64,000 nucleotides of DNA from Azonexus sp. (GCA_023150235.1 JAKLLH010000005.1:72830-136829); one strand, 5' to 3'; counted from the stretch's first letter, positions 4,598 through 64,000 are shown. Numbers and translations are program-made. Notes: generated by a model from the letters alone, not told the origin.

Positions 4598-4852
4598 TCA
4601 ATAATGAAACCGTAGCTGCGCAATTAGCAAGGCATCGTCTTCAACCCGGTACACCATGCGATGTTCGGCGGTAATGCGACGGGACCAGAAGCCGGCCAGG
4701 GCGTGTTTCAGAGCTTCTGGTTTGCCGGTGCCGGAGAAGGGTTGGCGCTGGGTTTCGCGGATCAGCTTGTTGATCCGCTCCAGAATCCGTTTGTCCTGTT
4801 TTTGCCAGTAGAGATAGTCTTCCCAGGCCTCGTCGGCAAGAATCAGTTTCAT
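4598..4852 (-). CDS. yoeB: Txe/YoeB family toxin
   Basis: AWEDYLYWQ, GKPEALKH, WSRRITAEHRMVY, LRFHY terminus. Confidence 0.95.
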   Translation of the reverse strand: MKLILADEAWEDYLYWQKQDKRILERINKLIRETQRQPFSGTGKPEALKHALAGFWSRRITAEHRMVYRVEDDALLIAQLRFHY

Positions 4853-5100
4853 TCGGCTAGCTGCCGTTCCTGGCCTTTGCCGGCGGCGAGTTGGGCGGTG
4901 GCCGCGAGCAGGCGTTTGGCGTTGGCCGGGGTGCGCAGGAGGTAGGCGGTTTCTTCCAGCGCCTTGTAGTCTTCCAGCGAGAGCATGACCACGGCTTGCT
5001 CGCCGTTGCGGGTAATGATCAGGGCTTCGTGGTTGTCACAAACCCGGTCCATGGTGCTGGCGAGGTTGGCACGAACGGCGGTGTAGGTCATTGCATCCAT
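4849..5100 (-). CDS. yefM: YefM/Phd family antitoxin
   Basis: VRANLASTMDRV, IITRNG, ETAYLLRTPANAKRL; 4-nt overlap with toxin start. Confidence 0.95.
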   Translation of the reverse strand: MDAMTYTAVRANLASTMDRVCDNHEALIITRNGEQAVVMLSLEDYKALEETAYLLRTPANAKRLLAATAQLAAGKGQERQLAE

Positions 5101-62446: not shown

Positions 62447-62547
62447 GGGGTGCTACGGTCGACCGGGGTTTTGGGGGGGATTTTGGGTTGGTCGTGGGGG
62501 GGGGGCTATCGACCCTAGGCTGCCCGTGACAGCTATGAAAAGCTGAT

Positions 62548-62616
62548 GCTCAACGTCTGACATAACCGGCGCGGGTGGCTTCATCGCCAGCGTCCGTGTT
62601 GATGGATAGGCTGGGC
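62548..62616 (+). other. attC-like site (degenerate R')
   Basis: GCTCAAC (RYYYAAC) ... GCTGGGC, 69 bp, central palindrome and CGTCCG arm shared with the second site. Confidence 0.65.
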
Positions 62617-62622
62617 GTCTCC

Positions 62623-62889
62623 TCACTCATAGTGGGTCCACATGCGCAAGACGCGAACCGTTTTTTCTTTAGTGAAGACCTCGTAGACCATGCGGTGCTG
62701 AATGTTGATGCGACGAGAGTAGGTGCCTGCCAGATCACCTACCAACTTTTCAAAGGGCGGTGGGTTTTGAAACGGGTCACCCGCAAGAATAGCCAGCAGT
62801 TCCTGTGCCTTTGGCTTAAGACCACTTGCAGCAAGCTTTTTTGCATCTTTCATGGCTTGCTTGGCATAAGCAATTTCCCAACTCACCAC
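62623..62889 (-). CDS. Txe/YoeB family toxin (cassette-borne)
   Basis: FEKLVGDL, YSRRINIQHRMVY, RMWTHYE. Confidence 0.93.
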   Translation of the reverse strand: MVSWEIAYAKQAMKDAKKLAASGLKPKAQELLAILAGDPFQNPPPFEKLVGDLAGTYSRRINIQHRMVYEVFTKEKTVRVLRMWTHYE

Positions 62890-63125
62890 TTAAGCGCCTT
62901 CGAGCTATTTGCGAGGGGCTCGGCCATGCCAACTTTGATGGACTCTCGCATGCCAGGTACGGCTAGCAGGTACAAGGTTTCCTGAATTGCGCTCCAGTCT
63001 TCCGCAGAGAGCAGAACGGCACTGCTGCGTTTCCCTGAAATGATGATTGGCTCATGTGACTCTGCCGTTTGGTCAATGAGGCGGTATAGGTTTGCGCGAG
63101 CTTCGCTGGCGGTAAGTGTGTTCAT
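62883..63125 (-). CDS. Phd/YefM family antitoxin (cassette-borne)
   Basis: TASEARANLYRLID, IQETLYLL.VPGM. Confidence 0.93.
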   Translation of the reverse strand: MNTLTASEARANLYRLIDQTAESHEPIIISGKRSSAVLLSAEDWSAIQETLYLLAVPGMRESIKVGMAEPLANSSKALKW

Positions 63126-63154
63126 TTCATCTTCCTTGCAAAGAAGCGCCCATG

Positions 63155-63170
63155 GTACGCTAATGCGTAC
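63155..63170. promoter_or_regulatory. TA operator palindrome
   Basis: GTACGC-TAAT-GCGTAC, GTAC cores 12 bp apart, upstream of the antitoxin. Confidence 0.6.
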
Positions 63171-63195
63171 GACGGTCAAGCGGGCGCTTCAAGAC

Positions 63196-63265
63196 GCCCA
63201 ACGTAGAGGTGACCGGCGCTGCGCGGCTTTATCGCGCAGCGTCCGTGTGGACCGCCGGGTTGAAC
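63196..63265 (+). other. attC site
   Basis: GCCCAAC...GTTGAAC, 70 bp, with central GCTGCGCG-GCTTTAT-CGCGCAGC stem. Confidence 0.8.
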
Positions 63266-63376
63266 GAAGCCGCTACGCGGAGAGGTCGCCCGGTTGCTGG
63301 CGCTGAATTATTCTGCATGTCGGTTCCTTCGTTGTGAAGGGACCGATTCTGCGATATTTCAAGAGGATAAGCCGGT

Positions 63377-64000
63377 ATGTCAAGCAATTTTCCGGCGCAT
63401 TTTGCCCGGCAGCATGACAGCCATCTCAAGCACCTGAAACTCAAGCACCTGAAACTCAAGCACCTGAAACTCAAGGGGCTGCAGCCCAAGATGATTGACG
63501 CCTACGCCCGAGCCATCCGGCACCTGGGCGGGTATTTCGACTACCGCATCGACGATCTTTCGGAAGCGCAGCTGACCGAGTATTTCAGCGACCTGATCGG
63601 CGCGCATTCGTGGAGTGCGGTGAAGCTCGATCTCTACGGGCTGAAGTTTTTCACCGTCCATGTGCTCAAGAAGCCCTGGGCGATGCCCCATCTGATCAAG
63701 CCGCCCAAGTGCCAGCGGCTGCCGGACATTGTCACGGTCGACGAGGCGCAGCGGCTCTTTTCAGCGACGCGGGTCTTGAGCTACCGGGTGTTGTATTTCA
63801 CCCTTTACAGCCTGGGTTTGCGTCTGGGCGAGGGGCTGGCGCTCAAGGTGAGCGACATCGACGCGACACGCATGCGCGTTCAGGTGCGCGATGCCAAGGG
63901 TAACCGGGATCGTTTCGTGCCCCTGGCCCCGGCGACGCTGACGGTGTTGCGCCGCTTCTGGCAAACGCATCGCCATCCGGAACTGCTCTTTCCCAATCGC
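63377..64000 (+). CDS. Tyrosine recombinase of the IS91-associated type (partial; runs off the window)
   Basis: Hand translation MSSNFPAHF..LKGLQPK..AYAR, SWSAVKLDLYGLKFF, YSLGLRLGEG (catalytic R), AKGNRDRFVP; AGAGG SD. Confidence 0.85.
   Translation, partial: MSSNFPAHFARQHDSHLKHLKLKHLKLKHLKLKGLQPKMIDAYARAIRHLGGYFDYRIDDLSEAQLTEYFSDLIGAHSWSAVKLDLYGLKFFTVHVLKKPWAMPHLIKPPKCQRLPDIVTVDEAQRLFSATRVLSYRVLYFTLYSLGLRLGEGLALKVSDIDATRMRVQVRDAKGNRDRFVPLAPATLTVLRRFWQTHRHPELLFPNR
63425..63475 (+). repeat. In-frame 15-bp tandem repeat (CTCAAGCACCTGAAA)x3.4
   Basis: Encodes LKHLK-LKHLK-LKHLK-LK. Confidence 0.95.

Follow-up and report, generated by a model that had tools for sequence, protein, structure and literature searches.

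A CALIN is a group of at least two clustered attC sites without intI nearby, the default distance in IntegronFinder being about 4 kb. Toxin-antitoxin (TA) cassettes of sedentary chromosomal integrons, e.g. the Vibrio superintegron, combine a self-promoted type II TA operon with an attC, are array-borne and are presumed to share the role of stabilising neighbouring DNA. IS1111-attC insertion sequences and group IIC-attC introns are mobile elements that target attC sites. By size, CALINs most often comprise two attC sites (1362 of 2961; bioRxiv 10.1101/2022.09.11.507474), and they have been ascribed to integron decay, to mobile-element rearrangement or to off-site insertion (bioRxiv 10.1101/2022.09.11.507474; PMC4889954). 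For about half of the reported CALINs, IntI is encoded elsewhere in the genome (PMC4889954), as it is here. SALIN, or attG, insertions (Loot et al., bioRxiv 10.1101/2022.09.11.507474) likewise place a cassette away from attI, where IntI could act in trans.

We analyzed a 64,000-nt stretch of an Azonexus sp. draft genome (50 contigs, 3.4 Mb), referred to as the window (C5:72830-136829). A cassette segment with a G+C content of 0.51-0.55 lies there between core genes with 0.60-0.69, including those for a MoxR-type AAA ATPase and a VWA protein (Table 1). The locus is very probably a two-attC CALIN with one complete, forward, self-promoted yefM-yoeB cassette that was mobilised by IntI, a classification that rests on our own genus-specific covariance model. 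With its two attC sites, and with intI absent both from the window and from the ~4 kb between site B and the contig end, the locus agrees with the small CALIN and self-promoted TA cassette of the original prediction, the contig end leaving a residual doubt.

Like the CALINs described with IntegronFinder (2016), the locus comprises two like-oriented attC sites, separated by ~580 nt, with a single complete cassette, and no intI is near. It differs from them in that a recombinase/IS91-like element has entered its upstream attC, and in the mutation of an invariant base in the R'' box of the cassette's own attC. Unlike a SALIN, the cassette has a true attC on both sides, and therefore the target, if insertion occurred here, was an attC and not an attG. 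Unlike the TA cassettes of sedentary chromosomal integrons, it lies outside an integron, in a betaproteobacterium (Rhodocyclales), in forward orientation; the same TA cassette is found between other cassettes in the metagenome contig L019. The window locus is an ordinary, well-documented kind of integron leftover and not a discovery in itself. As a natural example it is of textbook quality: a TA cassette is found stranded outside an integron, variants in the population fix the recombination points with single-base precision, and the change of an invariant R'' base goes together with a downstream junction that is frozen.

Table 1 Features of the cassette cluster, in window positions
Feature	Positions	Strand	Description
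46-nt distal stub TTGAGCATCAGCTTTTCATAGCTGTCACGGGCAGCCTAGGGTCGAT (top strand)	62508..62553	-	after the cassette; kept with the cassette across flanks
attC site A	62548..62616	-	own attC of the TA cassette
Gene cassette, 648 bp	62554..63201	-	5'-TTGGGC, promoter/operator, yefM, yoeB, attC A, G-3'
yoeB toxin	62623..62889	-	88 aa, C-terminus ...WTHYE; TIGR02116, PF06769
yefM/phd antitoxin	62883..63125	-	80 aa; PF02604
Putative cassette promoter and operator	63152..63190	-	TTGACC-16-TACCAT, palindrome, 9-nt inverted repeat
attC site B	63196..63265	-	attC of a lost or disrupted upstream cassette
Tyrosine-recombinase and IS91-like (HUH) element, left ~940 nt	63260..64000	+	remnant of a 2.39-kb element, ends ~64199

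Both sites belong to attC families of the genus

We built a covariance model, R1, from 35 attC sites in eight congeneric integrons, none of them from the window's genome, with the orientation of each site fixed by its intI. The consensus structure consists of an R box, an L box bulged by one base, and a short inner helix. In the R1 alignment 89.6% of the cells pair, compared with 73% in shuffles, and all seven L-box pairs vary on both sides, a covariation count that is partly circular because the seed scan had required L-box pairing. When the 64-kb window was searched, R1 matched site B with 43.7 bits (E 4e-7) and site A with 30.1 bits (E 3e-4), both on the minus strand only, and the next best match reached 12.4 bits (E 1.6). 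In the 6 kb to the contig end, including ~4 kb beyond site B, no further attC was detected by R1, with the filters on or off. The two ~70-nt attC-like sites that had been proposed from the sequence were thus both recognised by a model of congeneric sites that found nothing else in the window, and Rfam returned nothing relevant at the locus, only chance matches at E > 4. These significant, strand-specific matches show that both sites belong to attC families of the genus. Because both match the minus strand only, the TA genes are forward and not inverted.

Simpler searches were discarded. A genome scan with a hand-written RYYYAAC...GTTRRRY pattern and hairpin energies gave 278 mostly spurious matches in this GC-rich genome, and a stricter R/L-box scan gave 43 matches against 86 in shuffled sequence and was useful solely as a seed in arrays beside intI.

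At base level, conservation among attC sites is confined to the AAC of R'' and the GTT of R' (Bouvier et al. 2009, PMC2727003). On the minus strand, site B reads GTTCAAC...GTTGGGC, with R' G|TTGGGC (63202 to 63196) and a hybrid R'' GTTCAAC (63265 to 63259), in which the last C alone is native and the remainder comes from the inserted element. Site A has R' G|TTGAGC (62554 to 62548) and R'' GCCCAGC (62616 to 62610; canonical GCCCAAC), and therefore carries GTT in R' and AGC in R'', where the L019 orthologue has AAC. The crossover points are 62554|62553 in site A and 63202|63201 in site B. Site B is 96.8% identical over 63 nt to an attC in the complete integron of the same genome (C24:224954-225022), and the top strand of that attC, relative to its intI, corresponds to the window minus strand. 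One L-box pair of site B is broken (plus strand GGTGACC, versus GGTCACC in C24); on the top strand, the L box reads GGTGAC in the metagenome contigs L114 and L019 versus GGTCAC in the window.

Folding of the plus strand, which is the bottom strand of both sites, produced an R box, a ~5-nt spacer, an L box and unpaired T and G on the 3' arm (T, T and G in site A). The hairpin with extrahelical bases on one arm was thus obtained, and the R1 alignment keeps all helices, but the fold of site A is thermodynamically weak, its stability being no better than that of shuffles (z 0.04), compared with z -2.7 for site B and z -5.2 for the C24 copy. Since attC sites are near-palindromic, a strand and a set of cassette limits read from one sequence may err by exactly one attC length, and the strand reading calls for comparison across contexts or for a structural model.

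Gene content and limits of the cassette

The predicted toxin scored 88.9 bits with TIGR02116 (cut-off 51.8) and also matched PF06769; its best match in the PDB is the YoeB of 7v5y (E 1e-13). The antitoxin scored 67.5 bits with PF02604 (cut-off 29.8), and its PDB matches are RelJ and YefM antitoxins. Both proteins exceed the curated family thresholds, and the antitoxin gene precedes the toxin gene, with the yefM stop overlapping the yoeB start, the order of type II YefM-YoeB systems. Upstream of them, a promoter-like sequence (TTGACC-16-TACCAT, 63179-63152, minus) overlaps the perfect palindrome GTACGC-TAAT-GCGTAC (63155-63170), which is bracketed by a 9-nt inverted repeat (GAAGCGCCC/GGGCGCTTC). 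YefM-YoeB autoregulation acts at GTAC-core palindromes, and by analogy this sequence would function as the promoter and operator of the cassette. The proposal of an antitoxin-toxin pair with its own operator was thus supported by the family scores and by the palindrome over the promoter-like sequence. The pair resembles E. coli YefM-YoeB and Enterococcus Axe-Txe in Pfam and NCBIfam membership above the cut-offs, in the antitoxin-first order with stop/start overlap, in the C-terminal His-Tyr of the toxin and in the GTAC-core palindrome over the promoter, although the window proteins are distant from these (best PDB match E 1e-13). A second, distant yefM/yoeB-like pair lies at window positions 4643-5100 (C5:77472-77929), with 41% and 52% identity to the cassette proteins (tblastn).

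The exact YefM protein occurs on 12 metagenome contigs, and a YoeB query gave two more. Four junction contexts were found among these contigs. In the window type (L015-L018, L021 and L114), the order is recombinase element, attC B, TA genes, attC A, stub and VWA gene; L023 and L024 have the VWA side of this type and were not distinguished from it. L022 has the window's VWA side as well, but an unrelated attC body (...GGGCCGCCCCTTACCTAAAAC) is joined at |GTTGGGC. L020 and L115 carry a third attC upstream of the cassette and, downstream, the same 46-nt stub followed by unrelated DNA with the Mfd N-terminus. In L019, a B-like attC lies upstream, and the sequence past attC A diverges right after ...GACG|TT into another cassette, which is followed by a third attC and a BrnA cassette. 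The unrelated attC bodies in L022 and L020 extend to ...AC|GTTGGGC, and the homology breakpoints, 63202|63201 and 62554|62553, coincide exactly with the G|TT of the minus-strand sites. A scan of the metagenome contigs for the cassette 5' end gave 0 matches.

Of the two sites, only attC A accompanies the TA genes in each of the four contexts, and the cassette therefore runs from 63201 down to 62554, with its genes forward. As judged from these junction sequences, the cassette is shown to move as a unit, bounded by G|TT of the upstream attC at one end and by G|TT of its own attC at the other. The stub ends at the same base in L020 and L115 in spite of the different flank, with mfd next. Elsewhere in the genome, a second small cassette cluster without intI (C40:178500-180250) has two minus-strand attC sites (40.8 and 18 bits) and two low-GC cassettes, for a 199-aa membrane protein and a 180-aa protein; after its distal attC it carries a stub with 23 of the first 30 bases identical to those of the window's stub.

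These junctions bear directly on the reading of the original prediction, in which plus is the top strand and an inverted TA cassette, 62611-63259 with crossover points 62610|62611 and 63259|63260, sits in a solitary attC, GCTCAAC...GTTGAAC, and is locked by a T-to-C change in the crossover triplet. Both strands do satisfy RYYYAAC...GTTRRRY, as attC sites are near-palindromes, and the recombinase element does start at G|TTGAAC when read on the plus strand. However, R1 has no match on the plus strand, the B-type attC has the opposite orientation relative to intI on C24, and the breakpoints in L019, L020 and L022 keep attC A, not B, with the TA genes in every context and place the limits at 62554 and 63201, so that the first limits amount to a shift by one attC length. 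In addition, TTGAAC is the invariant 5' end of the inserted element, an end that complements the R'' box of the same element in 24 of 29 copies, and therefore GTTGAAC (63259-63265) is no evidence of an ancestral solitary attC that excision would restore. We consider this reading very improbable.

The base change noted in the original prediction is real, but it is located in the cassette's own R'' and not in a crossover triplet. The C at 62611 (plus) is the G in the top-strand R'' of attC A, where AAC has become AGC; A5, A6 and C7 of R'' are invariant in all 35 sites of the R1 model. AGC is present in the window and in eight other copies read at this place, and AAC in L019 alone. The nine AGC copies all have the same distal stub, despite three upstream attC sites and two chromosomal flanks, and L019, the sole AAC copy, has a different downstream neighbour. 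In a sample of one versus nine, this pattern fits a frozen 3' junction. AGC breaks the A-T pair adjoining the AA|C cleavage site in the folded bottom strand. A lock exerted by the R'' change, for a reason other than the one first given, is therefore plausible, on the basis of one canonical and nine mutated copies.

The integron elsewhere in the genome and the origin of the cluster

No match to TIGR02249 above the cut-off was found in the window or in the ~4 kb that separate site B from the contig end, and the locus accordingly lacks the intI and attI adjoining the cassettes of a complete integron. The absence of a nearby intI was correctly noted, but a complete integron is present on another contig of the same genome. 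The search of the other contigs revealed a single true, intact intI (C24:221573-222550; 491 bits with TIGR02249, cut-off 265), which encodes a full-length protein of 325 aa with the HTLRH and Tyr motifs and is situated 60 nt from gcvP. The genome's only complete integron spans C24:221573-225887. Past an attI-like G|TTGGGC, its array contains an unknown cassette, then one for restriction-modification and a third extending as far as the contig end. The attC nearly identical to site B is located between the second and third cassettes. The restriction-modification cassette (~1.9 kb) encodes a methyltransferase, a controller protein and an endonuclease, and has repeated ATGCTACTAATAGTA boxes.

We propose that IntI mobilised the cassette by recombining folded bottom strands, which would correspond to the window plus strand. 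The junction upstream of the cassette would still be exchanged in the population, presumably by IntI in trans: L022 counts for such activity, since next to the VWA gene it has the same cassette joined at G|TT to another upstream attC. The cassette itself may now be poorly excisable, since the AGC of its R'' would impair pairing beside the cleavage site, and excision may also be hindered by the broken L-box pair of site B and by the replacement of its R'' with the inserted element end. The TA pair, autoregulated at the GTAC palindrome, would penalise loss of the segment.

Arrival of the cluster as a block, comprising the cassette, attC A and the 46-nt stub, has in our estimate just under an even chance, and insertion of the cassette in situ by IntI into a resident attC is a tentative possibility below that; other routes of arrival share the remainder. 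Both block arrival and in-situ IntI insertion are among the routes proposed for small CALINs. Formation by attC x attC recombination in trans, as originally suggested, is possible, and the block beside mfd in L020 and L115 speaks for block movement. A search for an empty site in relatives did not provide one: the DNA that follows the VWA gene was compared in six congeners and is different in every species.

Two further explanations were weighed against mobilisation by IntI into a separate CALIN. An array fragment might have been carried as a block, e.g. by read-through (one-ended) rolling-circle transposition of an IS91-like element or by another rearrangement, with no role for IntI here. IS91-type elements are reported to mobilise adjacent DNA when termination fails (PMC7923331), such an element abuts the cluster, some CALINs have been ascribed by Cury et al. 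to IS-driven rearrangement (PMC4889954), and in L020 and L115, beside mfd, the segment of cassette, attC A and stub has an identical end point. We regard this as unlikely, although not remotely so, because the different attC joined exactly at G|TT at the VWA locus in L022 indicates an IntI-type exchange after arrival, the block in L020, which also has another upstream attC, excludes the element, and the window copy of the element is truncated and without its transposase.

The locus might instead be the distal end of the genome's single chromosomal integron, if the C24 array continues into the C5 end across repeats missing from the assembly, with the TA cassette as its last. With its 50 contigs the assembly is a draft, and draft genomes inflate CALIN counts (PMC9024848); the C24 array reaches its contig end, and C5 ends 3.2 kb past the window end inside a multicopy group II intron. 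The orientations are compatible, C24 plus and window minus both being top strands, and the two loci have one attC type in common. We nevertheless consider a continuous array improbable. The ~4 kb from site B to the C5 end contain no attC, even with the filters off. The C24 intI lies beside gcvP, and gcvP and the VWA gene are 1.4 Mb apart in the near-complete relative G017 (intI at 0.91, gcvP at 1.72 and the VWA gene at 3.09 Mb) and are on different large contigs in the closest relatives. Moreover, the last 139 nt of C24 recur at C22:141-279 (98.6% identity), followed there by unique high-GC DNA, which suggests that the C24 array ends there. Overlaps of the contig ends of C5 (group II intron) and C24 (match to C22) gave no unambiguous join. 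From synteny in other species, and with a draft assembly, we infer that the window locus and the C24 integron are two separate loci.

An element that abuts attC sites at R''

The DNA next to site B belongs to a 2.39-kb element that is multicopy in many Betaproteobacteria; relatives of the window copy occur in Azonexus, Thauera and other Rhodocyclales, and the element as a whole is widespread in Rhodocyclales, Burkholderiales, Nitrosomonadales and methanotroph symbionts. In the window, a recombinase ORF that starts at 63377 matches PF13495 and PF00589. Its score with TIGR02249 is 73.7 bits (cut-off 265), and the alignment stops at about position 181 of the 315 in the model; the window recombinase is therefore not an IntI. 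BLAST against an intact copy showed that the window copy holds element positions 1-887 only and is cut at ~64199, before the transposase. Intact relatives carry the HUH transposase motif HTHSRRLDLHPHVH, and L019 retains a fragment of it. We take the transposase, by eye, to be probably of the IS91 type; the window copy, cut off before this gene, lacks the HUH/Y2 transposase by which IS91 elements are recognised.

The left end of the element, TTGRAC-GAAGCCGCTACGCGGAG, is present in at least 62 copies, across most of the 80 loci (L033-L112), and the junctions are G|TT at both ends. At 32 of the 59 left ends that could be tested, the element adjoins an R1-detected attC to the base, and the attC is then invariably on the opposite strand. 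The right end is an attC-like site of the element's own, ending in G|TT, and is flanked by AGGC, GGGC, AGAA and others, the complements of usual R'' boxes. In 24 of 29 copies, the 5' TTGRAC and the R'' box of the element itself are complementary, and tandem copies are joined as ...AATCGTT|GGACGAAGCC. By these end sequences, the element looks like a cassette that enters the R'' box of a resident attC in inverted orientation. An inverted junction at R'' is what would follow if the resident attC took part through its top strand, and in mutant attC sites that recombine through the top strand, the recombination point moves to R'' (Bouvier et al. 2009, PMC2727003).

The recombinase gene requires a -1 frameshift at a conserved A-run, A8 in 49 copies or A7 in 18, to reach the HSLRH catalytic region, and the A8 site of the window element is located just past the window end (L013:2925-2945, on C5). 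Decay was rejected as an explanation for the frameshift, because copies throughout the family retain both the A-run and the dependence on a -1 shift; the shift is probably programmed slippage. The N-terminal part of the window recombinase gene (63420-63470) contains a tandem 15-nt repeat (CACCTGAAACTCAAG three times, encoding HLKLK repeats), the number of which differs from that in metagenome copies and in the intact copy L036 (one unit).

We tentatively read the outer half of site B, with somewhat less than even confidence, as the 5' end of a cassette-mimicking element, which would encode a tyrosine recombinase through a slippery -1 A-run and an IS91-type transposase, carry its own attC-like site and integrate inverted into a resident R''. 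This attC-targeting neighbour is a more unusual item than the CALIN. Like IS1111-attC insertion sequences and group IIC-attC introns, which also target attC sites, the element keeps a fixed position and orientation in the attC sites that it occupies, in many genomes. It differs in combining a tyrosine recombinase with an IS91-type HUH transposase and an attC-like end of its own, and in its inverted junction at the R'' box. A single anecdotal report was found, of the IS91-like ISShvi3 beside an attC (PMC9229058). If the reading is true, these elements would form a class of attC parasites not described so far, which could inactivate attC sites and either seed small cassette clusters or leave them stranded. 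An IS91-like/recombinase element habitually residing in R'' boxes could matter more for the decay and dispersal of arrays than the window locus does.

Two kinds of repeat occur around the locus. A direct repeat, ACGGTCGACCG.GGTTTT (62460 and 64310), was considered as a pair of element ends and rejected, since its 11-mer core is a REP-like palindrome found 585 times across the genome. This core, ACGGTCGACCG, is often intergenic in the 3.4-Mb genome, as AAAACCACGGTCGACCGTGGTTTT, and appears REP-like or uptake-signal-like. The terminus of C5 (L013:5882-6060, equivalent to window positions 67052-67230) is the 5' part of the group II intron, copies of which are present at 10 other contig ends and in two internal places. 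At the C5 end, the intron is inserted directly after a terminator-like hairpin (AATAAAGAAGCCAGTCA/TGACTGGCTTTTTTATT).
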